From an uncultured Massilia sp. (GTDB lineage Bacteria > Pseudomonadota > Gammaproteobacteria > Burkholderiales > Burkholderiaceae_D): DNA of 64,000 nt. Below are positions 4,238 through 63,924 of the stretch, piece by piece. The translations under genes and the position numbers were made by a program. The DNA lies in contig CAJYXO010000071.1 of assembly GCA_913778765.1 (NCBI GenBank), forward strand, positions 2,148 through 66,147, written 5' to 3'. Each line of letters opens with the position of its first letter. Position 1 is the first letter of the stretch. The notes beneath the pieces are model-generated. The model saw only the letters and a program-made list of their open reading frames with translations, was not told the DNA's origin and searched no databases.

Positions 4238-4240
4238 GGC

Positions 4241-5890: not shown

Positions 5891-6030
5891 GATGATGTCC
5901 GGTTAGTAAATTTTTACGCAATATACAGCATCGATAGGGTGCTGACAATCGTGCCACGAAGCATCATACAAGATAATTATCCTTGTAAATCATTGGCTTA
6001 TGATTTTCATGACTGAAGAATAATCGGCAA

Positions 6031-6048
6031 TGTAGTAGTCAAACTACA
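6031..6048. promoter_or_regulatory. Candidate HexR/RpiR-type operator in the divergent aglA / POT-pulA control region
   Basis: TGTAGTAGTCAAACTACA. This reads as TGTAGT-N6-ACTACA, or as nested AGTAGT-CAA-ACTACA (6034..6048), one mismatch from the TGTAGT-N3-ACTACA motif seen at 39705 and 30292. It lies in an AT-rich 260-bp intergenic region. Confidence 0.4.
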
Positions 6049-6152
6049 GAATCGATGTTAGGGTGACGAACTTGCCAAAGAAGTTCTTGTTGCCAAGCTA
6101 ATCCGTGGCGAATAGCATCGCGGCAGTACGCAAACGAGCACGGAGACGCCCG

Positions 6153-7742
6153 ATGACCCACAACCCACCGCCGGTCCAGACCGGCCGCATGCCCCGCCAG
6201 ATCCCCTTCATCATCGCCAACGAAGGCTGCGAGCGCTTCAGCTTCTACGGCATGCGCAACATCCTGACGCCCTTCCTGATCTCGACGCTGCTGCTGTTCC
6301 TGCCCGAGGCCGAACGCGCCGGCGAGGCCAAGCACGTGTTCCACACCTTCGTCATCGGCGTCTACTTCTTCCCGCTGCTGGGCGGCTGGCTGGCCGACCG
6401 CTTCTTCGGCAAGTACGACACCGTGCTGTGGCTCAGCCTCGTCTACTGCGCCGGCCATGCCTGCCTGGCCGCTTTCGAGGACAACCTGAACGGCTTCTAT
6501 CTCGGCCTGTTCCTGATCGCGCTGGGCTCGGGCGGCATCAAGCCGCTGGTGTCTTCTTTCGTGGGCGACCAGTTCGACCACACCAACAAGCACAAGGCCA
6601 AGCTGGTGTTCGACGCCTTCTACTGGATCATCAACTTCGGCTCCTTCTTCGCTTCGCTGCTGATGCCGATCTTCCTGCGCGACTACGGCGCGGCGGTCGC
6701 CTTCGGCATTCCCGGCATCCTGATGGGGATCGCCACCCTGGTGTTCTGGAGCGGCCGCAGGAAGTACGTGCACGTGCCGCCCAGCCCGCCGAATCCGCAT
6801 TCCTTCCTCAACGTCGCCAGGAGCGCCCTGCTGGCGAAGCGCGGCGATGAAGGCCGTCCGGGCCTCGCGGTGGCCAGCGTCGGCGCGCTCGGCGCCCTGG
6901 TCTCGCTGGCGATGACGCCGAGCTGGGGCTTTGTGATCGCCGCCTGCACCGCGCTGGTGCTGCTGCTGGCCTTCGGCGGCATCGGCGTGGCCCTGCAGCT
7001 GGAGCGGGCGCGCGGCCTGCATCCGGACGACGCGGTCGACGGCGTGCGCGGCGTGCTGCGCATCCTGATCGTGTTCGCGCTGGTGACGCCGTTCTGGTCC
7101 CTGTTCGACCAGAAGGCCTCGACCTGGATCGTGCAGGCGAATTCGATGATGCGCCCCACCCTGTCGCTGTTCGGCAGCGAATTCCGCTTCGAGCCGGCGC
7201 AGATGCAGGCCCTGAATCCGCTGCTGGTGATGCTGCTCATCCCCTTCAATAACATCGCCGTGTTCCCGCTGCTGCGCAAGCTCGGCTGGGAGCCGACCGC
7301 GCTGCGCCGCATGACGGCCGGGATCGCGTTATCGAGCCTGTCCTGGGTGGCGATCGGCACCATCCAGGTGGCGATGGACGGCGGCACGCCGGTCTCGATG
7401 GCCTGGCAGATCCTGCCCTACGCCCTGCTGACCATGGGCGAGGTGCTGGTCTCGGCCACCGGCCTCGAATTCGCCTACAGCCAGGCGCCGGCCTCGATGA
7501 AGGGCGTGATCATGGCCTTCTGGTCGCTGGCGGTGACGGTCGGCAGCCTGTGGGTGCTGATCGTGAACGCCAGCGTCAGGAACGAGGCCGTGCTGGGGCA
7601 TATCGCCAGCACCGGGCTCGGTGTGATGGCCTTCCAGATGTACTTCTTTGCCGCTTTCGCCTTTATCGCCGCCCTGGTGTTCGGCTGGTACGCCACCCGC
7701 TACCGCATGGTCGACAACTACCGCGCCGAGAAGACCGCCTGA
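6153..7742 (+). CDS. POT/PTR2-family proton-dependent transporter (nominally di/tripeptide permease)
   Basis: Carries the canonical POT ExxERFxYY motif (NEGCERFSFYGMRN) and is polytopic. Start chosen at MTHNPPP (6153); the track ORF begins at 6105. The stop is 19 nt before pullulanase. Confidence 0.8.
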   Translation: MTHNPPPVQTGRMPRQIPFIIANEGCERFSFYGMRNILTPFLISTLLLFLPEAERAGEAKHVFHTFVIGVYFFPLLGGWLADRFFGKYDTVLWLSLVYCAGHACLAAFEDNLNGFYLGLFLIALGSGGIKPLVSSFVGDQFDHTNKHKAKLVFDAFYWIINFGSFFASLLMPIFLRDYGAAVAFGIPGILMGIATLVFWSGRRKYVHVPPSPPNPHSFLNVARSALLAKRGDEGRPGLAVASVGALGALVSLAMTPSWGFVIAACTALVLLLAFGGIGVALQLERARGLHPDDAVDGVRGVLRILIVFALVTPFWSLFDQKASTWIVQANSMMRPTLSLFGSEFRFEPAQMQALNPLLVMLLIPFNNIAVFPLLRKLGWEPTALRRMTAGIALSSLSWVAIGTIQVAMDGGTPVSMAWQILPYALLTMGEVLVSATGLEFAYSQAPASMKGVIMAFWSLAVTVGSLWVLIVNASVRNEAVLGHIASTGLGVMAFQMYFFAAFAFIAALVFGWYATRYRMVDNYRAEKTA

Positions 7743-20180: not shown

Positions 20181-20266
20181 GTCGTTCCCGCGCAGGCGGG
20201 AACCCAAGTTTTGCGTGAGCTGCCGATACGCTTGCAAACTTGGATCCCCGCCTTCGCGGGGATGAC
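20181..20266. repeat. Bipartite REP/MITE-like element, copy 1
   Basis: Left module GTCGTTCCCGCGCAGGCGGGAACCCAAGTT (20181..20210). Right module in inverted orientation AACTTGGATCCCCGCCTTCGCGGGGATGAC (20237..20266). Each module holds its own GC hairpin. Spacer is 26 bp. Confidence 0.8.
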
Positions 20267-30317: not shown

Positions 30318-30415
30318 GTCATTCCCGCGGAGGCGGGAATCCAAGTTCGTTGCGAGCCGCCGGCTCTGTTATGGCTGCTCACGCAAACTTGGGTCCTCGC
30401 CTCCGCGGGGACGAC
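30318..30415. repeat. Bipartite REP/MITE-like element, copy 3
   Basis: GTCATTCCCGCGGAGGCGGGAATCCAAGTT (30318..30347), 38-bp spacer, AACTTGGGTCCTCGCCTCCGCGGGGACGAC (30386..30415). Lies immediately 3' of deaD. Confidence 0.8.
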
Positions 30416-45910: not shown

Positions 45911-45987
45911 GTCATTCCCGCGCAGGCGGGAATCCAAGTCTGGCCGTGTCGTTACAAAACTTGGGTTCCCGCCTGCGCGGGAACGAC
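45911..45987. repeat. Bipartite REP/MITE-like element, copy 4 (overlaps the 3' end of a GNAT gene)
   Basis: GTCATTCCCGCGCAGGCGGGAATCCAAGT (45911..45939), spacer, AAACTTGGGTTCCCGCCTGCGCGGGAACGAC (45957..45987). Confidence 0.85.
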
Positions 45988-53098: not shown

Positions 53099-53233
53099 TC
53101 AACCATAAGCTAAAGGCATGGATATGTATCTTTTTTGTATAACTTCCTGAAAAAGTGTATTTCTCGGTAGCAAGCGGCGTAAAATGTCTGGTTAAGTCCC
53201 ATCGTGGGACCATCGACACGTCCTCGAGGAATT

Positions 53234-55303
53234 ATGTTGGCAGGCCACAAACCCGCATCGCACAAGCATCGCAGCCGCGCGCTGCTGGCGGCGCTTTTGC
53301 TGGCGTCCGGCCTCGCCTTCGCCGATGCGCCCGCCCCGCTGGCCCAGCGCCTGGCCGACATCCAGGACCTCGGCCGCTTCACGCCGCTGCGCGCCCTGCC
53401 CATCCTGTCGCAGATGGAGCGCGAAAGCCGCGCCGCGCCGCTGGCCGAGAAGGCCGCCTTCCTCGACCTGGCCTGCAAGATCCACGACAGCCTCGGGCAT
53501 TACGAACTCGCCAACAAACTGTGCGACGAGTTGATCCTGCTCGGCCAGCAGCACGCCGACAACACGATCCTCGCGCGCGGCATGCTGGACAAGGGCTATG
53601 TGATGTTCCACCTGAACGAACTGGCCCAGTCGCACCAGCTGATCTGGCAGGCGGAAAAGCTGGCGGTGGGCAGCCGCGACATGGACCTGCGGGTACGCTC
53701 CACGATTTCCTCGGGCCAGTCGTATGGCGAGGACGGCAACTTCCCGATGGCCCTCAGCAAGCTGCAGGCGGCGGCCACGCTGGCGCGCCAGAGCGGCCAG
53801 CCGATGCTGATGACGATCGCCTTCAATTCGCTGGCCTATCTGTACAACCAGATGCGCGAGCACGACAAGGGCTTCGAGGCGCTGAAGGAAGCCTACCGCG
53901 CCGCCGAGAGCATCGACTCGCCCGGGCGCATGGCCACCCTCAAGAACACCGAATACGCCTTGTCGATCGATTCCGGCCAGGTGCAGCGCGGCCTGAAGGC
54001 CCTGCTGGCGGCGGTCGAACTGGAACGCAGGATCGGCGCCGGCCCGATGGTCGCGACCTCGCTGGTCAATTTGTCCGACTGCTACCTGAAGCTGAAGGAT
54101 TACCGCAACGCCCTCTCGTACGCCGAGCAGGCGCTGGCGCAGGCGCGCCTGATCAACAACGACAGCTCGATGGCGACCGCGCGCATGAACATCGGCCAGG
54201 CGCTGCTGGCGATGGGCCGCCTGGCCGAAGGCAAGAAGAACATCGAAGCGGGCATGGCCTGGTACGAGCAGCAGGGCGACAAGCCGACGCTGCAGGATGC
54301 CCTGGCCGAATACGGTGAAGCGCTGGAGCGCGCCGGCGACCTGCCCGGCGCCCTGAAGGCCTACCACCGCGAACGCGCGCTGTCGAACGAACTGTTCGAG
54401 CAGCGCCGCCAGAAGGCGATGCTGGAGCTGCAGGAAAAATACGAGTCCGACAAGCGCCAGCGCCAGATCGAACTGCTGCGCCAGGAAAACCAGGTCAAGA
54501 GCACCGAGATCGACAATCGCCGCCTGCAGCAGCGCGTCTGGTGGCTGCTGGCGCTGGTGTTCGCGCTGTCCGCGGTGATCGTCTACTTCCTGTACCGCAA
54601 AGTGCGCCAGGCCAACGCCCGGCTCGAGGAAAAGAACCTGGAGCTCAAGCAGCAGAGCGCGCGCGATCCGCTGACCGCCCTGTACAACCGCCGCCACTTC
54701 CAGGAATTCATGCGCGGCCACCAGGAGATCGCGCAGACCGGCGCGACCGAGGAAACCGTCAGCGCCATCTACCTGATGGACGTCGACCACTTCAAGCACA
54801 TCAACGACACCTACGGCCACGGCGCCGGCGACGCGGTGCTGCGCGAAATCGCCGACGCCCTGCGCGAGATCCTGCGCGAGACCGACATGATCGTGCGCTG
54901 GGGCGGCGAGGAATTCCTGGCCTTCCTGCCGGCGGTGCCGCGCAGCAGCCTGGACGACGTCGCGCGCCGCCTGCTCAGCGGCATTCCGGCGCGCAGCATC
55001 GACTACCAGGGCGTCAAGCTGTCGGTCAACGTCTCGATCGGCTTCGCGCCCTTCCCGCTGGCGCCGGGCGGCAAGCCGATATCGTGGGAGCGCGCCGTCA
55101 ACCTGGTCGACATGGCCCTCTACCTGGCCAAGGGCCACGGCCGCAACCGCGCCTACGGCGTGCAGGGCTTCGCCCGCGATACCGGCATGAGCATCGAACA
55201 GATCGAGCAGGACATCGAAGGCGCATGGCGCGCCGGCAGCATCGAACTGTCGGTCGTGCAGGGCAACTGGACGCCGCCGCAGCTGCAGGCGGTGTCGGCG
55301 TAA
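53234..55303 (+). CDS. Diguanylate cyclase: signal peptide, TPR-like periplasmic/sensor region, TM helix, coiled coil, GGDEF domain
   Basis: Start at MLAGHKPASHKHRSRALLAALLLASGLAFA. TM WWLLALVFALSAVIVYFLY. Active site GGEEF, with an RxxD I-site (RETD) five residues upstream. Confidence 0.88.
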   Translation: MLAGHKPASHKHRSRALLAALLLASGLAFADAPAPLAQRLADIQDLGRFTPLRALPILSQMERESRAAPLAEKAAFLDLACKIHDSLGHYELANKLCDELILLGQQHADNTILARGMLDKGYVMFHLNELAQSHQLIWQAEKLAVGSRDMDLRVRSTISSGQSYGEDGNFPMALSKLQAAATLARQSGQPMLMTIAFNSLAYLYNQMREHDKGFEALKEAYRAAESIDSPGRMATLKNTEYALSIDSGQVQRGLKALLAAVELERRIGAGPMVATSLVNLSDCYLKLKDYRNALSYAEQALAQARLINNDSSMATARMNIGQALLAMGRLAEGKKNIEAGMAWYEQQGDKPTLQDALAEYGEALERAGDLPGALKAYHRERALSNELFEQRRQKAMLELQEKYESDKRQRQIELLRQENQVKSTEIDNRRLQQRVWWLLALVFALSAVIVYFLYRKVRQANARLEEKNLELKQQSARDPLTALYNRRHFQEFMRGHQEIAQTGATEETVSAIYLMDVDHFKHINDTYGHGAGDAVLREIADALREILRETDMIVRWGGEEFLAFLPAVPRSSLDDVARRLLSGIPARSIDYQGVKLSVNVSIGFAPFPLAPGGKPISWERAVNLVDMALYLAKGHGRNRAYGVQGFARDTGMSIEQIEQDIEGAWRAGSIELSVVQGNWTPPQLQAVSA

Positions 55304-55326: not shown

Positions 55327-55411
55327 GTCATTCCCGCGAAGGCGGGAATCCAGGTTCTGCATGCCTGACGAAACTCGGACAAACTTGGGTTCCCGCCTGC
55401 GCGGGAACGAC
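55327..55411. repeat. Bipartite REP/MITE-like element, copy 5
   Basis: GTCATTCCCGCGAAGGCGGGAATCCAGGTT (55327..55356), spacer, AAACTTGGGTTCCCGCCTGCGCGGGAACGAC (55381..55411). Lies between the convergent GGDEF and lipoprotein genes. Confidence 0.85.
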
Positions 55412-55420
55412 GGAGGTGCT

Positions 55421-55717
55421 TTAACGCGCCGCCTCCTGCATCTTCTCGCCCGCCTGTTCGACCTTCTCGCCGACTTTCGCGGTTGCCCGGTCCAGGTTCT
55501 CGCGTGCTTCCGCGGTAGCCTCCTTCGCCTTCTCGCGCGCACGTTCGGCCGCCGCGTTGGCCTTGACCACCTGCTGCTGCACGGCGCTCTGGACCTTCGC
55601 GCCGGCGTCGTCGACGGCCTTGCCGGCCTGCTGGGCCGGGCCCATGCCGTCCGACGAGGGATTGCAGCCGGCCAGCAATGCGGCCAGGCATAGCGCTGTT
55701 GTCATGGCTGGTTTCAT
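55421..55717 (-). CDS. Small lipoprotein with amphipathic-helix (LEA/apolipoprotein-like) repeats; last gene of the tubulin-like operon
   Basis: 98 aa. Lipobox LLAGC after MKPAMTTALCLAA. The mature part is K/E/A-rich and helical (AERAREKAKEATAEARENLDRATAKVGEKVEQAGEKMQEAA). Confidence 0.6.
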   Translation of the reverse strand: MKPAMTTALCLAALLAGCNPSSDGMGPAQQAGKAVDDAGAKVQSAVQQQVVKANAAAERAREKAKEATAEARENLDRATAKVGEKVEQAGEKMQEAAR

Positions 55718-55741
55718 GGTGCCTCCTCCTTTCCGACTCGG

Positions 55742-56731
55742 TTAGCGATTCCTGTTGTCCGGCACGGCGCCGCCTGAGCCGGCGCCCGAGCCCGTGCTGC
55801 CGCCGCCCGACGATCCGAGCGCGCCGCGCGGCGCCGCCAGCGGATGCTCGCGGTGCGCCATCTCCTCGCGGCGCGCGGCCTCGATCCTGTCGTTCAGCGC
55901 GCGCGTGTCCTGGTCCTCGCCCCAGCGCTTCGTGAACGCCTGCAGGCGGCTGCGCGCCTTGTCGAAGCCGGATGCCGCCAGCGCCGATTCGACCGCAACG
56001 CTGGCGTCGTTCCAGGCCTTGCTGCGCTGGCGCCGCTTCGTACAGGCGGCGGCTTCGTCGTTGAGCGCCTGCTGCAGGCGCTGCAACTGCGCCGGCGTGG
56101 CGCGCGACTTGCGCAGCGCAATCAACTCGGCCTGCGCATCGCCGGCCTTGCACTCGCGCGCCAGGGCGATCGCGGCGTCGATGCGGCGCTCGATCCGCTT
56201 GCTCGACGGCTTGGCCACGAACCACAGGCCCCACAGCACGGCCAGCGCCAGGATCCACCAGCGCAGGCGGATCGGCCTGCGTCCCGGCGGACGCGCGGCC
56301 AACGGCGGGCGCGGCACTTCCTGGCGCGGCGGGACCGCCTCGGCGGCGGGCTTGCCGCCGCGGCCGAAGGCGGTGGCGCTCGGTGCGCCGGCGCCGGCCT
56401 GTGAAGCTGCCTGTGCGCCTGTTGTGCGTGCGGCAGCGGACGGCGCGGCAGCCGGGGCAACCGGCGGCGCGGCAGGCGCCACCTCGGCCGCCGGCGCATC
56501 CGACCAGCCGGACAGCGCCGCCGCCGCGCTTGCGCCCGCAGCCGCTGCCGCGGCCTTGTCTGCGGCAGCCGCCGCCGCTGCGGATAGAGCGCCGTCGGGC
56601 ATCGCCGCCGCGGGCGTGCGCGCACCGCTGCGCGCCTGCGCAGTCCCGCACCACGGACAGAAGTTCACAGGCCGCGGCGTGGGCCGGCCACAGGCGGCAT
56701 TGATGCATCGGTAAATCGTTTCGTCTGCCAC
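55742..56731 (-). CDS. Zn-ribbon / Ala-Pro-rich linker / single-TM / helical ectodomain protein
   Basis: 329 aa. N-terminal C-x4-C...C-x2-C (YRCINAACGRPTPRPVNFCPWCG). About 130 aa of A/P-rich low complexity. TM WWILALAVLWGLWFV. C-terminal helical domain. Starts 9 nt after the tubulin-like gene stop. Confidence 0.6.
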   Translation of the reverse strand: MADETIYRCINAACGRPTPRPVNFCPWCGTAQARSGARTPAAAMPDGALSAAAAAAADKAAAAAAGASAAAALSGWSDAPAAEVAPAAPPVAPAAAPSAAARTTGAQAASQAGAGAPSATAFGRGGKPAAEAVPPRQEVPRPPLAARPPGRRPIRLRWWILALAVLWGLWFVAKPSSKRIERRIDAAIALARECKAGDAQAELIALRKSRATPAQLQRLQQALNDEAAACTKRRQRSKAWNDASVAVESALAASGFDKARSRLQAFTKRWGEDQDTRALNDRIEAARREEMAHREHPLAAPRGALGSSGGGSTGSGAGSGGAVPDNRNR

Positions 56732-56740
56732 GGCGCTCCC

Positions 56741-59700
56741 TTATTCCGGATCGGGGATGCCGTCGTCCGGATCGGGAATCGCGGCATCCAGCCCGCCCGC
56801 CAGCTCCGGGAGCTCGCCGACCGTCTTCCACTTGTCCAGGCGCGGGTTCCACAGCATGTTCCAGATGCGCGTGCCGCGGTCGATCTCGCCGCGCGCCAGC
56901 TGCTGCGCCACCTCTTCCAGCGCGTACGGGCCGCGCTGGGCGCCGTTCACGAACAGCTTGAAGCGCGCCGCGCCGGTCGCGGCGGGTTGCAGGTCGGCGC
57001 CATGGCCGAAGCCATCGCCGCCCAGGCCCGCCGCCGTGCCGGCCGGCGCGCCCGACCGGCGTTCGAGGGCCTGCAGCGCGCGCGCCTCGCTGGCGAGGAA
57101 CTCGGGCCGGATGATGCGCTTGTCGACCGGGCGCTCGACCTCCCAGTGGTAGGCGTCGCTGGCGGAATCCGGCACCGTCTCGCTCCACAGGTCGAGCTGG
57201 GCCAGGGCCGCCTCGACCTGGGCCGGCGTCAGCTCGGGATGCAGCGAGGATGCGCGCCGCATCCACTGGTCGTACAGCCGGCGCGCCGTGATGGTCGGCA
57301 GCGACGGCGACGGCAGCTGGGCGCCGGTCTCGTCGACTTCCAGCTTGGGCTCGTACACGCGCAACTGGTAGTGGCGCATCAGCGCCGCCAGCAGCGCCAG
57401 CCGGTAGGGTCCCATGTTCCCGAGGCGCTGGCGCACGGCGGCGATCACCTGCTCGCGATAGTAGGGCGGCAGGCCGTTCGAGCGGATCGCGTACTCGTTG
57501 CCGATCTGGAGCCATTCGCCGGAGCCCGGCTCGACCTCGAACAGGTACTGGCCGCGCGGCTGGAAGGCCGCTTCGCGGTCGCCGGCATCCTGCTTGCGGC
57601 GGATGACGCCCAGCGCCACCGCCTCCAGGTACCATTCGTAATCGTCGGCCAGGCGGTTCAATTCGTCCATCGAGGGCGAGATCGGATGCCGGAAGCGGGT
57701 CGAATCGAAATGCAGGTGGGTCGGGATCTTCGGGTTTTCGATCTGGTAGGAGGCGCGCCAGGTCGGCAGGCCGCGCAGCACCGTCATCGGATAGCCGGAC
57801 AGCTCGATGTAGCACACCGCTCTGCCGGTCACGCCGGTGTTGACGATGGCGACCGCGTCGCCGTGCAGGAATCCGGTCGGCACGGCGGCGCGGATCTCGG
57901 CTTCCAGCCGGCGCCAGGCGGCCGGGTCGCCGACGCCGATGAAGCACTTGAACTGGTCGGCGCTGGGCGTGAACTCGGCCGAGAAGCGCGCGTTAATCCA
58001 CGGCATGGCGCTGCGGATCCACTCGCTGAACACGCGGTGGCGCTCCTGCGGCGACATCGCCCCCAGGCGTTCCAGCAGCGGATCGACCGCGTCGCCCGGT
58101 TCGAGTCCGGCGGCCTGCATGCTGGAGAGCTGGGTCTGCGCGCGGCGGAACAGCTTCAGCAGCAGGTCGGCGCGGGTGCGTTCGTCGCCGAGCTGGGGAA
58201 AGAGCTGGGCCGAGCCGCCGAATTCCAGCAGCACTTCTTCGGCCCAGCCGCTGACGTCGCTCGTGAGCCTGGGCGGCGCCGGCTGCGTATCGCCGGTGAG
58301 CTTCAGGTAGGTCGCGTGCTCGTGGCGGGCGTCGTCGCGCAGCTGGCCGATGCGCTGGTCGCAGGCCGCCAGCATTGCGCCGACGTTGCGCCGGCCTTCC
58401 TGGAATTCGCCGGCGACGCCGCTCCACTGGGCCTGGCCCTGTTCGTCGGTGCCCTGTGGATTGCCGAGCCAGGCCGACATGCTGTGCATGACGTCGATCG
58501 CCTGGCCCGCCGCCACCGACAGCAGGTGGAAGCGCAGGTAGTCGGCGATGTCGCGCTTCAGGTGGTTCATGACTTCGCGCGCCTGGGCATCCTTGCCGAA
58601 CAGGCGGCCGGCGGCCTGCGACAGGTTGTTCAGCGATTCTTCGACCTGGCGCGTGCGCAGGGCGTCGCGGATGTCGCGGTAGCGCTTGCCGTTGCGCTGG
58701 GCGTTGGCGAGGTCGCGCTGGGCCAGCCTGGCCTTGATCTGTTCCAGCAGCGACAGCACGAATTCCAGGCCGCCCTGCTTGCGGTCGTCGAGCAGCATGT
58801 ACAGGCGCCCGCGCACGTTCAGGCGCAACTCCGCCAGCAGCTCGCCGGTCTTGCGCTTGATGCGGTCTTCGCTGGTCTCGGCGGTGGCGCCGGCTTCGCG
58901 GATGGCGTCCCGTTCCAGGTTGGGCAGCAGCTCGACCACCTTTTCGCGCCACAGCTTCAGGTCGTAGGACGCCATGATGCGGTCGATCTCGAGCTGCACC
59001 TTGCTCTCGACCCGCTCCAGCAGCGAGCGCTGGTCCTTGTCCATCAGGAGCATGTCGGTCAGCGCGTATTCCTGGAACGGCGTGACGTCCACCGTGCCCT
59101 TGCGGAAGTCGGGGAATTCCGAGAACGGATGCTCCTGCAAACCCATCTGGTCGCGCATGAAGCTGTCGCGCTCCGCGTCGGTGGCGCGGCGCGCGGCCTT
59201 GCCGTCGGTGCTGGCCAAACCGAAGAAAGCCTTCACCATCAAGGCCGCCAGCTCGTAGGCGCGGATATCGTCGCGCAGGCTTTGCTGGGTGTCGAGCACC
59301 GACTGGCCGAAGGCCGAATAGACCTTCGAGTAGGACAGGCGCATGTCGCCGAAGCGCTGCTCCGGCACGCGCGGATTGTAGGGGCCGAGCTTGTGCTGCT
59401 GCTGGTTCACCGCCACCGAACGCTTGCGGTTGGCGAAATCGGCCGAAGCGAAGTCTTCGAACAAGGTGTCCGCCACCATCTGGTAGACGTCCTTCACGTC
59501 CTGGGTCGCCTTGTTGGCCAGGTTGGCGGTGTCGACGAAATAGACGTCGTCGAAGGGCGCGCCGCGCCCGGTCACGCTGTCCGGGTCCATCCACTGCACG
59601 CGCGCGTTCATGTCGCGCATGGTGGTCTCGAGTTCCATCAGGGTCGCGTAGGCATTCGCCTCGGTGCGCTCCTTGTTGGCCTTCGCATAGCCCGAAGGCA

Positions 59701-60421
59701 GGAACATGACCAGGTCGACCTGGCTGCTCGAAACCTCCTGGCTTGCGATGGCCTTGGCGAGCCAGCCCAGGTCGATGGCGCTGCCGGCCCCGGTGCCGCC
59801 GGCGTTCGAGGCGATGACGACGATGCGGAATTTACTGGTATCGACCTGCAGCCCGAGGCGCTGGTAATTCTCCTTGCGCTCGTTGCCCGCATTCGAGCTG
59901 AGGAAGTTCAGCGCGCCCTTGATGCGGCCGCGCAGCTTGGGGTATTTGTCGAACAAATACAGGCGCGCCAGCGCGCGGATCTGGCCGGCGCCCTTGGACG
60001 GATCGATGCCCAGCGAGCGCAGCTTCTTGGGCCGCAGCGGCATCCAGTTTTCGATGAGCGGGAAGCGCGCCAGGCTGTCGTCGGATTCGTGGTACTGCGG
60101 CAGGTCGAGCGGTTCCACCAGGCGTTCTTCGTCGCTCAGCTTGACCAGCTCGAACCAGGGATCGGTGCGCTGCGACTTGCCTTCGTCGATGATGGCCTGG
60201 TTGTCGAGGTCGAAGTGCAGGAAGCGCGCCACCGGGAAGTCGGCGATCGACTCCACGCGGGTCGGATGCTGGCGGTTCCACACCGCCGACAGGATGCGGC
60301 GGCGGATCCGCATCATGACTTCCATGCCGGTGCCGCCGGCGCCGATGAACAGCGTCGGGCGCAGGTCGACCTTGAGTTCCGCTTTCTTGTTCAGCGCCGA
60401 GGGATCGGGAAAATCTGCCAT
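56741..60421 (-). CDS. Giant tubulin/FtsZ-superfamily GTPase-like protein (Tubulin_2-type) with C-terminal GYF_2-like domain
   Basis: 1,226 aa. T1-like loop LFIGAGGTGMEV (nt 60326..60343). Exact tubulin signature [SAG]GGTG[SA]G as AGGTGAG in VVIASNAGGTGAGSAIDLG (nt 59783..59803). T5/T6-like FLPSGY...NAYATLMEL. C-terminal FKLFVNGAQRGPYALEEVAQQLARGEIDRGTRIWNMLWNPRLDKWKTVGELPEL fits GYF_2/DUF4339. Confidence 0.75.
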   Translation of the reverse strand: MADFPDPSALNKKAELKVDLRPTLFIGAGGTGMEVMMRIRRRILSAVWNRQHPTRVESIADFPVARFLHFDLDNQAIIDEGKSQRTDPWFELVKLSDEERLVEPLDLPQYHESDDSLARFPLIENWMPLRPKKLRSLGIDPSKGAGQIRALARLYLFDKYPKLRGRIKGALNFLSSNAGNERKENYQRLGLQVDTSKFRIVVIASNAGGTGAGSAIDLGWLAKAIASQEVSSSQVDLVMFLPSGYAKANKERTEANAYATLMELETTMRDMNARVQWMDPDSVTGRGAPFDDVYFVDTANLANKATQDVKDVYQMVADTLFEDFASADFANRKRSVAVNQQQHKLGPYNPRVPEQRFGDMRLSYSKVYSAFGQSVLDTQQSLRDDIRAYELAALMVKAFFGLASTDGKAARRATDAERDSFMRDQMGLQEHPFSEFPDFRKGTVDVTPFQEYALTDMLLMDKDQRSLLERVESKVQLEIDRIMASYDLKLWREKVVELLPNLERDAIREAGATAETSEDRIKRKTGELLAELRLNVRGRLYMLLDDRKQGGLEFVLSLLEQIKARLAQRDLANAQRNGKRYRDIRDALRTRQVEESLNNLSQAAGRLFGKDAQAREVMNHLKRDIADYLRFHLLSVAAGQAIDVMHSMSAWLGNPQGTDEQGQAQWSGVAGEFQEGRRNVGAMLAACDQRIGQLRDDARHEHATYLKLTGDTQPAPPRLTSDVSGWAEEVLLEFGGSAQLFPQLGDERTRADLLLKLFRRAQTQLSSMQAAGLEPGDAVDPLLERLGAMSPQERHRVFSEWIRSAMPWINARFSAEFTPSADQFKCFIGVGDPAAWRRLEAEIRAAVPTGFLHGDAVAIVNTGVTGRAVCYIELSGYPMTVLRGLPTWRASYQIENPKIPTHLHFDSTRFRHPISPSMDELNRLADDYEWYLEAVALGVIRRKQDAGDREAAFQPRGQYLFEVEPGSGEWLQIGNEYAIRSNGLPPYYREQVIAAVRQRLGNMGPYRLALLAALMRHYQLRVYEPKLEVDETGAQLPSPSLPTITARRLYDQWMRRASSLHPELTPAQVEAALAQLDLWSETVPDSASDAYHWEVERPVDKRIIRPEFLASEARALQALERRSGAPAGTAAGLGGDGFGHGADLQPAATGAARFKLFVNGAQRGPYALEEVAQQLARGEIDRGTRIWNMLWNPRLDKWKTVGELPELAGGLDAAIPDPDDGIPDPE

Positions 60422-60449
60422 GTCGTTATCCTTTGATTCTTGGCGGCGC

Positions 60450-60914
60450 TTACCGGCGGCCGATGAGCAAGGCCGCGATGAGGGCCACCACGCCGATCAC
60501 GACCAGCGGCCCGGTGATCGCCAGGGTCAGGTACTTGGCCGCATTGATGATCGCCAGCACCGCCGCGAAGGACAGGAAAGCCAGTCCGACGAACAGCAGC
60601 CAGCCGGCGCTGCCGGCCGAAGACGGCGCCACGCGCTTGACCACCAGGTGGTGCACGTAGGCGTTGCGCACGAAGAAGTAAATCACCAGCAGCACCAGCA
60701 GGATCGCACCGCCGATCGCCAGGTCGCGCGCCGAGGTGTCGCGCAGCGGCGCCGCGCTGGGATTGGTGGCGCCGCCCGGCGCGATCTCGACCGGTTGACT
60801 GGCGGTGTCGGGCGCGGTCTTCGGCAGCCCTTCCTGGGGGGTGGTCTGCTGGGTCTGGCCCGGCAGCTTGAAGCCGGGGTCGGTGGAATCCGGCGAGGTC
60901 TTCTTGTCTTGCAT
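60450..60914 (-). CDS. Small polytopic membrane protein (3 predicted TM helices, disordered N-terminus)
   Basis: 154 aa. A P/T/Q-rich ~60-aa N-terminus, then LAIGGAILLVLLVIYFFV, WLLFVGLAFLSFAAVLAIINAA and LAITGPLVVIGVVALIAALLIG. Stops 28 nt before the tubulin-like gene. Confidence 0.6.
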   Translation of the reverse strand: MQDKKTSPDSTDPGFKLPGQTQQTTPQEGLPKTAPDTASQPVEIAPGGATNPSAAPLRDTSARDLAIGGAILLVLLVIYFFVRNAYVHHLVVKRVAPSSAGSAGWLLFVGLAFLSFAAVLAIINAAKYLTLAITGPLVVIGVVALIAALLIGRR

Positions 60915-60937
60915 GGGCCTTCCTTTCGTTTTTTATC

Positions 60938-62431
60938 TCATCGTCCCAGCCGGACCTGGGCGCCTTCGCGCAGGTCGATCAACTGGTGGCCGAACAGCGT
61001 CGTCTTCAGGCGGGCCACCTGGTTGCCCGCCTTGTCGTAGATCGGTTGCGTGGCGCCGGAACGCGTGTGCACGGTGCGCAATTCGTCTTCCACGACCAGC
61101 TGCACGCGGCGCGGCCGGCCGTAGGCGTACGCTGCGCCGGCGCCCGCCGCCAGCAGGGCCAGCACGCCGCCCAGCAGCGCCATCAGCGGCCCCGAGCCGT
61201 AGTGCACCCTCACTTCCAGCGGCAGCACCGCCGTCGATGCCTGGATTTCGGCGGGCGGCGTAAAGATCTCGGGCAGCGGATCGCCGGGGAACAGCGCCGC
61301 CATGCGTTCGCGGAAGGCTTGCGACAGCACCAGGCGCTGATTCGCCAGGTGCAGTTCGATCCGGCCCGGCAGCACATAGGCCGAGCCGGCCGACTTGAGC
61401 GCCTCCATCGACCATTTGCCGGGCAGTTTCGCCACCGGCAGCTGCATGCTGGCGGACAGCGGCTCGGGCTTGCCCGGCGCCAGCTGCTTCACGTCGCGCC
61501 GCGCCAGTTCGATCGGCCGGTTCTCGCCGGCCAGCACCGAGCGCGCGCTGAGGGTGGCGTCGGCGATCGTGTACGGATACATCGTGTTCTCCAGCTGCCA
61601 CTGGATGCGTGTGCTGGGCGCCACCGCATCCGGCTCGACGTCGGCATGCAGGCGGCCGCCCGCATCCATCGCCAGCGCCACGCCGGCCGCGCCTTCGACG
61701 CGGCGCGGCACCAGGCGCACGGTGTCGCGGTCCAGCGGCTTCAGGCGCGCCGGCGGCTCGGTGATCACGCGCTGCACGCGGCCGGCAGCCAGCAAGGCAT
61801 CCAGCGCGCGCGCGCCCTCCTTCCCGACCGCGAACACATACACCATCAGGCCGTTCGCGCTGTAGTGCGCGCCCTGCACCTTCATGCGCAGCGGGAAAGC
61901 GAGCGCCTTGTCGATCGCGGCGCCGCGGTGGATCAGCGCGTAGAACTCGCGGTTGCGGGCGCTGGTGGCCTGGTCGTTGTTCGGGCTGTTGCGGTTGTTC
62001 GTCACCAGCCACACCAGGCCCGGCTTGCCGCCGAGGACCCGGTTCAGGGCGGCGTCGACGGCTTCGCCGAGGTCGGTATCGGCCAGCGCCTGGCCGCCGG
62101 GCTTCCTGGCCAGCTGCAAATCCTGCAGGGCCGCCTGGACGTGGGCGTGGACCGTCTTCGCATCGACCTGTTCGGACAGCAGGCCTTTCGGCGACGGCGC
62201 CCCGGGCAGCGACTGGTTGAAGGCGGCCAGCACCAGCGCGTCGCCGGGCTGCACCACGTTGCTGACCAGTTCCGTCACCAGCGGCTTGAAGCTCGAGGCC
62301 GGGTCGCTGTAGAAGGGCTCCATCCAGCCCGAGTTCTGGACCAGCACGACATGCGGGATGGCGAAGGCGGGCGCGGCGGCGCCCAGCAGGCTTGCCGCGA
62401 GGACCAGCATCGAAGCGAGCGCGCGCCTCAC
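60938..62431 (-). CDS. Exported vWA-like protein with degenerate MIDAS, C-terminal TM anchor and short cytoplasmic tail
   Basis: The GTG start at 62431 overlaps the upstream stop (GTGA). Signal peptide VRRALASMLVLAASLLGAAAPAFA. vWA-like strand/helix pattern VVLVQNSGWM (DxSxS replaced by QxSxW), ALVLAAFN, ADTDLGEAVDAAL, LVWLVTNNRN. TM LMALLGGVLALLAAGAGAAYAY, then a ~60-aa tail. The track ORF (to 62578) is longer. Confidence 0.5.
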   Translation of the reverse strand: MRRALASMLVLAASLLGAAAPAFAIPHVVLVQNSGWMEPFYSDPASSFKPLVTELVSNVVQPGDALVLAAFNQSLPGAPSPKGLLSEQVDAKTVHAHVQAALQDLQLARKPGGQALADTDLGEAVDAALNRVLGGKPGLVWLVTNNRNSPNNDQATSARNREFYALIHRGAAIDKALAFPLRMKVQGAHYSANGLMVYVFAVGKEGARALDALLAAGRVQRVITEPPARLKPLDRDTVRLVPRRVEGAAGVALAMDAGGRLHADVEPDAVAPSTRIQWQLENTMYPYTIADATLSARSVLAGENRPIELARRDVKQLAPGKPEPLSASMQLPVAKLPGKWSMEALKSAGSAYVLPGRIELHLANQRLVLSQAFRERMAALFPGDPLPEIFTPPAEIQASTAVLPLEVRVHYGSGPLMALLGGVLALLAAGAGAAYAYGRPRRVQLVVEDELRTVHTRSGATQPIYDKAGNQVARLKTTLFGHQLIDLREGAQVRLGR

Positions 62432-63924
62432 GACAGCGCTTCCAGATTCCAGCCGCGGATCCGGTTCCAGTCGGGGTGGTGCAGCCACAGGCGGTTGGCG
62501 TACACGAAGGGCAGGCACGCGAGCGGACGCGAAAGGCGTGCGATCTCGTCGAGGATGACGTTGCGCCGGCCTATCCATTCGACCGTGGTGCGGGCGATCA
62601 CGCGGTCGGCCAGCGCTTCTTCGGCGCGGCCGGTGTATTTATGGAAGCGCAGCACCAGCCCGCTGGGCTGGGCGCGGTTGTTGTTGAAGCTGCGCAGCAG
62701 CGGCAGCACCAGCGAATCGTCTTCGTTCGGATCCTCGACGTGCGCCCCCAGCCAGGGATCGTCGACCACCGGATGGCCGCGCCGGAACAGCAAGTTGGCG
62801 AAGCCCAGGCGCGCGCCGTCGATCGGCTCGCGCTGCGGATGCTCGACGCCGAGTTCGAGGAAGCAGTAGGACTGGCCGTCATGCCCGATCAGCCACATGC
62901 GGCCGTCGCGGCTCAGGGTCGGTCCGCCGAACTGCAGGCGCGGCAGCCAGGTGTCGGGCCAGGGCAGGAAGCGCGGCGCCTCGCCCGGACGCCACAGCAG
63001 CTGGCCCTCGTCGTGCAGCCAGGCCAGCTGGCCGTCGTAGCCGATCGGGCGGCTCCAGCCGGACAGCGGCAGCGCGCCGCACTCGTATTGCGGTCCCGGC
63101 GCCAGTTCGGCATCCAGCGTGGCCAGCACCAGCACGCCGGCATGCCCGCGCACCGGGCAGGCCAGTTGGCGCCGCATGCTGCCGGGCGCCGCCACCATCG
63201 GCGCGGCCAGCACGGAATCGAGCCGGAAGCTCTCGCTGATCGGGTTGATCCACAGGCGGTACAGGCCCTGGGCGGTCGGCACCAGGGCGACTTCGCCGCG
63301 CCGCGGTTCCAGCGACGGCAGCCAGCCATAGTCGGAAGCGCCGAAGCGCAGATCGGCCGTTCCCTCTTCCGGCACCAGCACGTGCCACAGCTCGCCCAGC
63401 GGATCCCAGTACTGCAGCACGCCGCGTCCCGGCGCCAGGGCCAGCAGGCGCTGTTCCTGGAAACCGTAGCCGGCGGCGATGAACACGCACTCGGCGTTCG
63501 GCGGCGTCGGCATCGACGTGTCGAAGCGGCCGACCACAGGCGCGGCCGGACGCTCTTCGAGACTGTCGCCGAGCGGCAGCGAGGTGACCGGCAGGCCGTG
63601 CGGCACGTGGCGCGGCAGCGCCTGGTCCGCATACGGCCCCCACCACTCGGGGCGGCGCTGCTGGCGCCCGGCCAGCCGTTCGAGCGGGCTGCCGCAGGCG
63701 GGGCAGAAGGAAAAGCCTTCGGGATAGATGGGCGAGTGTTCGCAACCTTCGGTATCGCAGGCCGGCAGCGAAGCGCCGAGCAGGTGCGCGAAGTCGGCCA
63801 TGCGTCCGCGCGCATGACGGCTCCAGTCGATCCGGCCCAGCCCTTCGCTGGCCGCCAGTTCGAACTGCCCGCTGCCCTCGTCTTCCAGCCAGACGCTGGC
63901 TGGAGTTTCCCATCGGTATGGCAT
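62428..63924 (-). CDS. Zn-ribbon protein with repeat-rich (beta-propeller-like) body; first gene of the tubulin-like operon
   Basis: 498 aa. C-x4-C...C-x2-C (ACDTEGCEHSPIYPEGFSFCPACG). Then recurring G-x-L/W-W strands (GVLQYWDPLGELWHV, GLYRLWINP, GQLAWLHDEGQLLWRP, DGRMWLIGHDGQSY, NRLWLHHPDW). No family recognised. Confidence 0.5.
   Translation of the reverse strand: MPYRWETPASVWLEDEGSGQFELAASEGLGRIDWSRHARGRMADFAHLLGASLPACDTEGCEHSPIYPEGFSFCPACGSPLERLAGRQQRRPEWWGPYADQALPRHVPHGLPVTSLPLGDSLEERPAAPVVGRFDTSMPTPPNAECVFIAAGYGFQEQRLLALAPGRGVLQYWDPLGELWHVLVPEEGTADLRFGASDYGWLPSLEPRRGEVALVPTAQGLYRLWINPISESFRLDSVLAAPMVAAPGSMRRQLACPVRGHAGVLVLATLDAELAPGPQYECGALPLSGWSRPIGYDGQLAWLHDEGQLLWRPGEAPRFLPWPDTWLPRLQFGGPTLSRDGRMWLIGHDGQSYCFLELGVEHPQREPIDGARLGFANLLFRRGHPVVDDPWLGAHVEDPNEDDSLVLPLLRSFNNNRAQPSGLVLRFHKYTGRAEEALADRVIARTTVEWIGRRNVILDEIARLSRPLACLPFVYANRLWLHHPDWNRIRGWNLEALS

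Follow-up and report, generated by a model that had tools for sequence, protein, structure and literature searches.

A six-gene cassette around a giant Tubulin_2 protein in Massilia, a widely conserved proteobacterial subtype of FtsZ-like 1 systems

The 'FtsZ-like' proteins delineated by Makarova and Koonin in 2010 are those of the Pfam family Tubulin_2 (Santana-Molina et al., PMC9871819). One of their families, FtsZl1, is encoded in predicted operons with von Willebrand factor A (vWA) proteins, often together with kinases, a GTPase and OmpA proteins, and a role in membrane remodelling was inferred for it without experiments (PMC2875224). Few branches of the tubulin/FtsZ superfamily are as divergent as the FtsZl1/Tubulin_2 proteins, and no experimental function has been assigned to them since 2010. 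Kaur, Burroughs, Iyer and Aravind (2020) later predicted conflict systems in which proteins with a tubulin domain occur together with vWA proteins, GTPases and HSP70 (PMC7159879). Here we describe a locus of this family in a 64,000-nucleotide stretch of DNA from an uncultured Massilia sp. (contig CAJYXO010000071.1, positions 2,148 to 66,147; the whole stretch is called the window, and coordinates refer to it). The locus comprises six minus-strand genes, G1 to G6, built around a tubulin-like protein of 1,226 amino acids (aa), G4. It is a chromosomal operon and represents a separate, broadly conserved subtype among the FtsZl1/Tubulin_2 systems.

The computational work of 2010 had already described the protein family and its link to vWA and membrane proteins. 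What is new is a fixed six-gene proteobacterial cassette whose partners match neither the accessory families of 2010 nor the Firmicute and Actinobacterial tubulin systems of 2020. The cassette overturns no established view. It is compact and present in many culturable Proteobacteria, and it offers a genetically tractable entry to what FtsZ-like 1 proteins do and whether they polymerise.

The cassette and its conservation

In transcription order the genes are G1 (62428-63924, 498 aa), G2 (60938-62431, 497 aa, with a GTG start), G3 (60450-60914, 154 aa), G4 (56741-60421, 1226 aa), G5 (55742-56731, 329 aa) and G6 (55421-55717, 98 aa), all on the minus strand. An initial annotation of this DNA had reported six tightly packed open reading frames (ORFs); on recomputation both the coordinates and the junctions of -4, 23, 28, 9 and 24 nucleotides (nt) were reproduced, the first junction being a GTGA in which the GTG start of G2 overlaps the stop codon of G1. 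The window is about 68% GC and holds many spurious ORFs overlapping real genes; the six genes, G1 included, have a third-position GC of 0.83-0.92, which is the coding signature of this genome. Purine-rich, Shine-Dalgarno-like stretches are visible upstream of G3 to G6, and no terminator-like site lies in the internal gaps between the six genes. A terminator-like hairpin with a T-rich tail (55330-55349, minus strand), located 72 nt past the G6 stop and between convergent genes, is the likely end of the operon. At the other side the window ends 76 nt upstream of G1. On the chromosome of the close relative Massilia sp. WF1, where these six genes are called too (500, 501, 150, 1258, 302 and 98 aa), a DUF3828 gene precedes the cassette at a 137-nt gap, with divergent genes farther upstream. 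Because the DUF3828 gene is not recurrent in other genera, the whole six-gene unit is very probably contained in the window.

The extent of conservation was surveyed with an alignment of G4 and 40 diverse relatives on contigs taken from one genome per species. Of the first 600 pattern-matched stretches, 477 encoded a relative; 80 loci were retained for study. The order G1-G2-G3-G4 recurs in about 40 loci by tblastn; hidden Markov models (HMMs) add alphaproteobacterial and Chlorobium loci. Overall, order and sizes are kept in about 40-55 genomes. The sizes of the four syntenic proteins are nearly constant (~495, ~493, ~145 and ~1,230 aa). Taken singly, G2 has orthologues in 58 loci and G3 lies between G2 and G4 in 54, while tblastn places G1 orthologues ahead of G2 in about 40 loci and HMMs do so in the further alphaproteobacterial and Chlorobium loci. 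The synteny test called for by the initial annotation was in this way carried out, and order and sizes proved to be kept across phyla, the carriers belonging to the Beta-, Gamma-, Alpha- and Deltaproteobacteria, the Nitrospirota and Chlorobium. They include Janthinobacterium, Duganella, other Massilia, Acidovorax, Rhodoferax, Variovorax, Paraburkholderia, Azoarcus, Azohydromonas, Pseudomonas and Stenotrophomonas; further carriers are Thiodictyon, Endozoicomonas, Methylumidiphilus, deltaproteobacterial and Nitrospirota metagenome-assembled genomes (MAGs), Chlorobium, Acetobacteraceae, Methylobacterium, Rhizobium-related bacteria and Caulobacteraceae.

Clustering of the flanking genes yielded two further conserved families, a G5-type protein and a lipoprotein; the remaining flanks vary between genera. 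The G5-type gene, encoding a zinc ribbon and a transmembrane (TM) segment, lies downstream in at least 19 loci, and a lipoprotein gene is present in 28. Carriers are scattered patchily over the genera, in variable genomic contexts. Because the flanking genes differ between genera, the cassette is to be regarded as the conserved unit, and because the order G1-G4 recurs in dozens of distant genomes, chance adjacency is refuted.

A Tubulin_2 protein and its envelope partners

G4 is almost certainly a member of the FtsZl1/Tubulin_2 family. Residues 24-377 (59291-60352, minus strand) match the Pfam family Tubulin_2 (PF13809) with E = 1.5e-48 and 166.3 bits over a cut-off of 27, covering profile positions 1-336 of 356. 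The match bears out the tubulin-like nature of the 1,226-aa protein at the centre of this co-directional, tightly packed six-gene unit, and it answers by profile which of the FtsZ-like families the locus belongs to, namely FtsZl1 of Makarova and Koonin 2010. G4 is not a canonical FtsZ: FtsZ_C is missing, and Tubulin_2 is the only match in G4 among the FtsZ and Tubulin families of Pfam. NCBIfam and PADLOC returned no match for G4, and no TM segments were predicted in it. When 1.84 billion representatives were searched exhaustively with HMMER, 1,583 relatives came up at E <= 1e-3, of which 135 reached E <= 1e-30; many are proteins of ~1,200 aa that align with G4 over the full length at 25-47% identity. 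The protein is laid out as an N-terminal GTPase-like domain, a long and probably mostly helical middle, a conserved C-terminal region, a Gly/Ala linker, a GYF_2 domain and an acidic, Pro-containing peptide.

The loops expected around a bound nucleotide can be read along the N-terminal domain: GAGGTG at residues 27-32 (T1-like), FDLD at 70-73 (T2-like), KGAGQIR at 143-149 (T3-like), NAGGTGAG at 206-213 (the T4 signature), N300 (T6-like) and DFANRKR at 328-334, at the T7 position. Across 38 N-terminal domains from two Tubulin_2 subfamilies GxGGTG, DxD, GAGQxR, S-x2-GGTGxG, P242, AN-x2-A-x3-E, N300 and F-x3-KR-x4-N are invariant, and with them the single residues G29, G30, G32, G208, G209, T210, G211 and G213. 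This conservation strongly supports that the N-terminal domain keeps the nucleotide-binding loops. For comparison with FtsZ, a profile was built from nine sequences of a plasmid collection that matched E. coli FtsZ (the query sequence was verified as 100% identical). With hhalign, G4 aligned to this profile over 229 columns with a pairwise P = 0.0084 and a reported probability of 4.8%, and the order of the loops was that of FtsZ: T1, T2 (NTD), T3, T4, T5, H5, T6, H7 and T7, with DFAxxKR of G4 placed opposite the FtsZ T7 motif NxDFAD. Against the single E. coli FtsZ the T4 loop alone was aligned, so that the loop-ordered alignment needed the nine-sequence profile. The alignment is consistent with the published HHpred result and gives a hint, rather than a proof, that equivalents of T6-H7-T7 exist. 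An AlphaFold2 model of residues 1-1130, made from 80 homologues of 84-96% identity, had a mean predicted local distance difference test (pLDDT) score of 46.8; it displays long helices at ~460-700 and a mixed alpha/beta C-terminal part, and Foldseek found no match for it at E <= 0.001. Neither the model nor the search was used as evidence. Around residues 375-440 (window ~59100-59300) the full-length profile gave non-significant matches (E ~0.6) to the Apaf-1 CARD and to S100, which are probably helical-bundle noise and which are mentioned since Death-like domains figure in the conflict-system literature.

The C-terminus carries the adaptor elements. The GYF_2-like tail noted in the initial annotation is a Pfam GYF_2 domain (E = 5.1e-9, 36 bits) at residues 1158-1207 (56801-56950, minus strand). 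A profile of the subfamily's GYF domains matches the GYF domain of Myxococcus GltJ/AgmX, whose structure is solved (7z3c), with E = 1.7e-12, while the window sequence alone gives E = 0.25. GYF_2 is absent from the other Tubulin_2 subfamilies and present in every member of the G4 subfamily except one, the orthologue of locus L039 (a Syntrophorhabdaceae MAG, 3661-7311), which has at its end a zinc ribbon, CAGC...CPQCG. Some proteins of other Tubulin_2 subfamilies terminate in zinc ribbons as well. The swap in L039 suggests that GYF and zinc-ribbon modules may be interchangeable adaptors of one complex, and because of this swap and the zinc-ribbon fusions of other lineages, the zinc-ribbon modules would belong to the Tubulin_2 complex. 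After the GYF domain two mutually exclusive types of tail are found, PPPLxPPPL in most lineages and a doubled acidic (I/L)PDx(D/E) in window-type Massilia and in Acetobacteraceae orthologues. In the window the latter is the peptide AIPDPDDGIPDPE at residues 1214-1226 (56744-56782, minus strand), with two (I/L)PDx(D/E) repeats. By analogy with the short C-terminal peptide of FtsZ, it may be a partner-docking site.

The exported partner, G2, opens with a typical signal peptide, MRRALASMLVLAASLLGAAAPAFA, and hydropathy places TM segments at residues 7-25 and 416-434. An AlphaFold2 model from a diverse 97-sequence alignment (mean pLDDT 88) consists of the signal helix, an alpha/beta domain at 27-215 (61787-62353, minus strand) with alternating strands and helices and pLDDT above 90, a beta-sandwich at 228-410, a TM helix at 414-438 and a cytoplasmic beta domain of ~55 residues. 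The last, at 441-497 (60941-61111, minus strand; six short strands, pLDDT ~85), can also be aligned in distant homologues from other Tubulin_2 loci and is a candidate contact site for G4 or G1. In the alpha/beta domain the family-invariant motifs LVQNSGWMEPF, ADTD and W-x2-TNN-x-NSP fall at the positions of the residues that form the metal-ion-dependent adhesion site (MIDAS) of vWA domains. The MIDAS pattern DxSxS...T...D was not found in G2, which has QNSGW and TNN instead. An HMM of G2 retrieves distant homologues adjoining Tubulin_2 genes in other phyla, at three loci with E from ~1e-10 to 1e-11 and at a fourth with 0.007, and in a joint alignment QNSGWM and W-I-F-TNN of the G2 family stand opposite DxSGSM and W-L-I-TDN of these homologues. 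The top matches of the bridging profile in the PDB were below threshold (E = 0.015-0.6) and comprised the I-domains of integrin alpha-X (E = 0.015) and alpha-M (E = 0.22) and the VWA domain of CaV alpha2delta. Some sources name G2 orthologues 'VWA domain-containing' or 'BatD'. The best reading is that G2 is a MIDAS-less vWA-like protein, at a similarity below formal significance. From the initial description as an exported, MIDAS-less vWA-like protein with a TM anchor, export and anchor stand by hydropathy and by the model, and the vWA-like part leans on sub-threshold matches and the motif alignment.

G5 is bitopic, with a zinc ribbon (C9/C14...C25/C28), an Ala/Pro-rich cytoplasmic linker of ~120 aa, a TM segment at ~154-172 and a helical periplasmic domain. 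It matches the HMM of the ~419-aa zinc-ribbon/TM proteins found directly downstream of G4 orthologues with E = 2.9e-14, at a high compositional bias. Linkers of the G5 type are mostly ~17-44% proline, a few being near zero, and the ectodomain of one G5 orthologue shows weak TPR-like matches. The protein evolves fast, being 62% identical to its Massilia sp. WF1 counterpart against 86-91% for G1-G4. G1, of 498 aa, belongs to an unnamed family, has a Trp-rich and probably beta-rich body and, N-terminally, a cysteine knuckle resembling a zinc ribbon (C56/C61...C73/C76), and with no TM segments predicted it is a soluble cytoplasmic protein. Its orthologues keep an invariant tryptophan ladder; the zinc-ribbon cysteines are absent from most of them, which present the segment FPPEFxFxPxxG there. 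The G1 family profile gave nothing significant against Pfam, the PDB or, in a self-comparison for internal repeats, against itself. In both G1 and G5 the zinc-ribbon matches in Pfam are weak and below threshold. The initial reading of G1 as a zinc-ribbon and propeller-like protein gains no support from these searches as to a propeller and is upheld as to the knuckle cysteines, which are present in the window and gone in most orthologues; that of G5 as a zinc ribbon, linker, TM and ectodomain is upheld by hydropathy as to its single TM segment, with a sub-threshold zinc ribbon.

G3 has, as the initial annotation had it, three TM helices (64-82, 105-123 and 133-151 by hydropathy), preceded by a Pro/Thr/Gln-rich tail of ~60 aa. 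Conservation is limited to the TM part and does not extend to this tail; the distribution of charges, under the positive-inside rule, favours an N-out, C-in topology. No family of Pfam, NCBIfam or PADLOC includes G3. G6, of 98 aa, is a lipoprotein, as proposed, its lipobox LLAGC being read directly, and has an Ala/Lys/Glu-rich helical body with a sub-threshold similarity (E = 6e-5) to the alanine-zipper lipoproteins Lpp/OprI. In 28 loci of other genera the G6 position is occupied by a non-homologous glycine-zipper lipoprotein of ~248 aa. Homology between the two was considered and rejected, the HMM matching the lipobox alone, and G6 is treated as a positional analogue. Altogether, TM predictions and the G2 model strongly support the distribution over cytoplasm, inner membrane and periplasm that had been proposed for the products: G1 and G4 are assigned to the cytoplasm, while G2, G3 and G5 belong to the inner membrane and extend large parts into the periplasm; G6 is a lipoprotein.

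Roles excluded, roles proposed

The locus is not a division, DNA-segregation or phage-positioning system. No FtsZ match was found in the 64-kb window and no dcw context surrounds the cassette; at the locus neither centromere-like or intergenic tandem repeats nor an adjacent DNA-binding adaptor was found. Relatives are present in none of 50,697 phage records and in 6 of 72,556 plasmid records, all of them large replicons. The initial view of a locus apart from dcw/ftsZ, free of TubR/centromere-like partition parts and of phage genes, is therefore confirmed. The sole full-length plasmid-borne relative (locus L091, Azospirillum sp. TSA2s plasmid p2, NZ_CP039644.1, 1-15516) has G2- and G3-like genes upstream; on its flanks lie two genes of the caspase family and three of the OmpA family, along with DUF4384 proteins and one protein with a PEGA domain. 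The plasmid searches also returned, on the 149-kb Marinomonas algicola plasmid NZ_CP061942.1 (104797-105618), a 'hypothetical protein' (H29) 34% identical to residues 24-298 of E. coli FtsZ. It may belong to FtsZl2, a proteobacterial family recorded for Marinomonas in the 2010 paper (PMC2875224).

We propose instead a model in which GYF and zinc-ribbon adaptors tie a GTP-dependent tubulin-like assembly to a complex that spans the envelope, and we hold it tentatively, with a confidence somewhat short of even. In the model, G4 would bind GTP and self-associate head to tail like tubulin and FtsZ. It would be kept at the inner membrane by docking of its GYF domain on the proline-rich cytoplasmic linker of G5, with additional contacts made by the zinc-ribbon modules of G5 and G1 and by the cytoplasmic domain of G2. 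The nucleotide-dependent assembly in the cytoplasm would be coupled to a periplasmic module, formed by the vWA-like and beta-sandwich domains of G2, the ectodomain of G5 and G6, that reaches toward the outer membrane, and the output of the complex would be local organisation, sensing or remodelling of the envelope. The wiring is modelled on GltJ, the 'focal adhesion' adaptor of Myxococcus gliding, which is laid out as zinc ribbon, linker, GYF, TM and periplasmic part; its GYF domain has micromolar affinity for a proline-rich stretch of AglZ, while the zinc ribbon is a protein-interaction switch linking a GTPase platform to a trans-envelope machine (PMC11135422). The sequence RPPGRRP that precedes the TM segment of G5 was considered as a specific GYF ligand and rejected, PPG being absent from nearly all G5-type proteins, that of Massilia sp. 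WF1 included; the general idea of the Pro-rich linker as ligand we infer and keep. As for the cytomotive or membrane-remodelling system suggested by the initial annotation, its predicted envelope-spanning topology holds, and the cytomotive or remodelling action is retained as a working conjecture.

A bolder version can be formulated: a trans-envelope machine in which a tubulin-superfamily GTPase polymerises at the inner membrane, where GYF and zinc-ribbon adaptors hold it, and is connected mechanically or allosterically with the periplasm and outer membrane by way of a degenerate vWA protein and a lipoprotein, with GltJ-like wiring or, as a variant, in which polymerisation is the threshold step of an immune response triggered at the envelope. 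We consider it speculative and rather unlikely. If true, bacterial tubulin homologues would have a third functional class beside those for division (FtsZ) and for DNA positioning (TubZ/PhuZ). Bacterial cytoskeletal proteins would gain a new functional class if the system proved to be a cytomotive or threshold-setting polymer that is anchored at the membrane and joined to the periplasm. The contacts proposed are testable, these being the GYF domain with the proline-rich linker, the zinc-ribbon modules, the cytoplasmic tail of the vWA-like protein and the T7-like DFAxxKR loop.

A number of observations weigh against the tethered-assembly model. The fold of G4, its activation domain and the assignment of T7 are all deduced from sequence, and so, from spacing, is the co-transcription of G1-G6. 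The hhalign probability against the FtsZ profile is low in spite of the P value, and searches of the PDB with phmmer (G4) and with HMMER profiles of the N-terminal domain and the full-length protein yielded no significant match to FtsZ or tubulin. One of the two acidic residues of the FtsZ T7 loop is kept (D/E328), with the invariant K333 and R334 nearby; for FtsZl1, T6-H7 was judged unidentifiable and filament formation perhaps absent (PMC2875224). As regards G2, Pfam VWA is absent from it and from 35 orthologues, neither the family profile against the PDB nor hhalign against a genuine VWA protein gave a significant vWA match, and the weak Foldseek matches of the whole model were driven by the beta-sandwich and TM parts, integrin beta3 appearing at rank 29. 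On the adaptor side, the PPG motif of G5 is not conserved, and the Pro-rich tail of G4 itself is an equally good candidate for the GYF ligand. Finally, the literature searched reports no experiment on any member of the FtsZl1/Tubulin_2 family.

The cassette could alternatively be an anti-phage or abortive-infection conflict system of the type described by Kaur, Burroughs, Iyer and Aravind, with the exported vWA-like protein sensing an invader, a threshold set by GTP-dependent oligomerisation of the tubulin-like protein, and growth arrest or death brought about by a membrane component such as G3. The grouping made by these authors speaks for it, as do the patchy distribution and variable context of the cassette and the contents of other Tubulin_2 loci: those of Latescibacterota and Pyrinomonadaceae carry a zinc-ribbon-HSP70 fusion (L072:13404-16433), a GrpE-domain protein (L081:4466-6058) and a trypsin-like protease fused to TM segments (L072:8873-9907), their exported proteins being distant G2 homologues, and on the Azospirillum chromid two caspase-family genes stand around a G2-G3-G4-like module. 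Nevertheless, apart from a chance-level match of G6 to ZorA (E = 0.023), no model of PADLOC-DB v2 matches any of the six proteins, and no recognisable effector, P-loop GTPase or HSP70 is found among them. The cassette is absent from phages and nearly so from plasmids. In Massilia it sits in a conserved chromosomal context, among metabolic and transport genes; integrases and other defence genes are missing there, and its rate of evolution does not exceed that of most neighbours. Across many Massilia species the identity of G4 is 81-100%, unlike typical defence islands with their fast turnover. We consider a defence role unlikely on this balance. Four tandem zinc-ribbon proteins are encoded downstream in L081.

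The comparison with Massilia sp. WF1 gives the details of this context. The neighbours of the cassette encode glycosidases, two ABC exporters, a TonB receptor, a TPR-GGDEF protein, a phasin and three enzymes, namely an amidohydrolase, a GNAT acetyltransferase and an esterase; genes of phages, integrases or defence systems were not found among the neighbours in the window, and the GC content of the cassette (0.65-0.75) is not clearly atypical for it. G1-G4 are 86-91% and G5 62% identical to their WF1 counterparts, the flanking genes mostly 83-94% (64% for the phasin gene), and the chromosomal context is common to both. With proteins of many Massilia and Telluria species G4 shares 81-100% identity, which places the source in Massilia (Oxalobacteraceae, Burkholderiales). 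Judged from these identities, the cassette is vertically inherited in Massilia and evolves at about the rate of its neighbours. The convergent TPR-GGDEF gene (53204-55303, plus strand) encodes 699 aa that comprise TPR repeats, a diguanylate cyclase domain of the GGDEF type and a signal/TM segment; it adjoins the cassette in Massilia sp. WF1 as well (83% identity) and not in other genera. In three genomes, of Massilia aurea, M. niabensis and Massilia sp. MP_M2 (loci L016, L029 and L059), the G4 of the cassette is merely 41-45% identical to that of the window, the lipoprotein is a long glycine-zipper one and the genomic context is unlike that of the window; either 'Massilia' contains two lineages of the cassette or both are present together in some genomes. 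The window further contains six copies, against 0.04 expected by chance, of a palindrome TTCCCGC-N4-GCGGGAA resembling repetitive extragenic palindromes (55331-55348, 55390-55407, 45915-45932, 45966-45983, 20185-20202 and 30322-30339). Two pairs are intergenic, one copy coincides with the terminator-like hairpin after G6, and spurious ORFs across the copies encode the 'SRLRGND' peptides typical of such repeats.

A second alternative dispenses with filaments: G4 would be a GTP-driven switch or chaperone-like remodeller of the vWA-like G2, analogous to MoxR-vWA pairs, and would control a periplasmic or envelope complex. A G2 orthologue is annotated in one source as 'oxygen tolerance protein BatD', and DUF4381 is weakly matched by a distant homologue; BatD and DUF4381 are families found in MoxR/Bat operons. 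GTPase/tubulin-vWA and MoxR-vWA systems are treated as analogous by Kaur et al. (PMC7159879), Makarova and Koonin did not find filament-forming elements in FtsZl1 (PMC2875224), and an invariant Lys-Arg occupies the T7 position in place of the usual acidic pair. Yet the loop-order alignment, which includes H7 and a DFA-containing T7-like loop, suggests that elements of a longitudinal interface are retained; MIDAS, the usual functional site in MoxR-vWA systems, is degenerate in G2, and the cytoplasmic part of G2, of merely ~55 residues, leaves little to remodel. A switch of this kind appears to us improbable, somewhat more so than a defence role.

That the six ORFs are unrelated neighbours, or are in part spurious products of high-GC DNA, where many long spurious ORFs arise, and form no functional unit can practically be dismissed: G5 and G6 are of low complexity and go undetected by tblastn in other genera, but all six genes carry the coding signature of the genome and are called at like sizes in Massilia sp. 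WF1, G5 matches the HMM of the positional G5-type family, the last position is held by a lipoprotein gene in 28 loci, and the order and sizes of G1-G4, kept across phyla, effectively refute the idea.

Comparison with known systems

The cassette shares with the FtsZl1 systems (PMC2875224) a large protein whose FtsZ-like GTP-binding domain is N-terminal and precedes a long, probably helical region and a C-terminal region. It also shares an operon, apart from any ftsZ of the window, in which membrane proteins are encoded together with an exported or membrane-bound protein that in the cassette is probably vWA-like. It differs from them in four respects: (i) G1, the MIDAS-less G2, the three-TM G3, the zinc-ribbon/TM protein G5 and the lipoprotein are not among the accessory families listed in 2010 (vWA of COG2304, OmpA-like, GTPase, B1-B9); (ii) the Ser/Thr kinases, P-loop GTPase and OmpA genes of that paper are lacking from the cassette; (iii) MIDAS is intact in most of the associated vWA proteins and degenerate in G2, and (iv) the C-terminal GYF_2 domain of G4 is not mentioned there. 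With the systems of Kaur et al. (PMC7159879) it has in common the combination of a Tubulin_2-type protein, extracellular vWA proteins and zinc-ribbon modules, and distant G2 homologues occur in such loci. However, it has no GAP1/DO-type GTPase, HSP70, effector or effector-associated domain, and the tubulin-containing systems of that study are confined to Firmicutes and Actinobacteria. In Massilia the cassette has the character of a stable chromosomal set.

Among the characterised members of the superfamily, FtsZ resembles G4 in the order of the nucleotide-binding loops and, by analogy, in the flexible linker followed by a short conserved C-terminal peptide. In contrast, G4 is 3-4 times larger, has neither FtsZ_C nor a dcw context, carries an altered T7 (DFAxxKR) and is similar to FtsZ at the profile level alone. 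The TubZ/TubR/tubC system and PhuZ are, like the cassette, built on divergent tubulin-superfamily members outside cell division; unlike them, the cassette has no DNA-binding adaptor or centromere repeats, and its partners are membrane and periplasmic proteins.

The last comparison is with GltJ (AgmX). There a single membrane protein bears both the zinc ribbon and the GYF domain, with the small Ras-like MglA as GTPase, whereas in the cassette, which has no Agl/Glt motor genes, the GYF domain is carried by the tubulin-like GTPase and the zinc ribbons by G5 and G1. The GYF domains of the two are nonetheless homologous (profile E = 1.7e-12), and G5 repeats the arrangement of a zinc ribbon, a Pro-rich linker, a TM segment and a helical periplasmic part. 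Both systems would share, the cassette by way of the model proposed here, a cytoplasmic GTPase platform linked to a trans-envelope complex.

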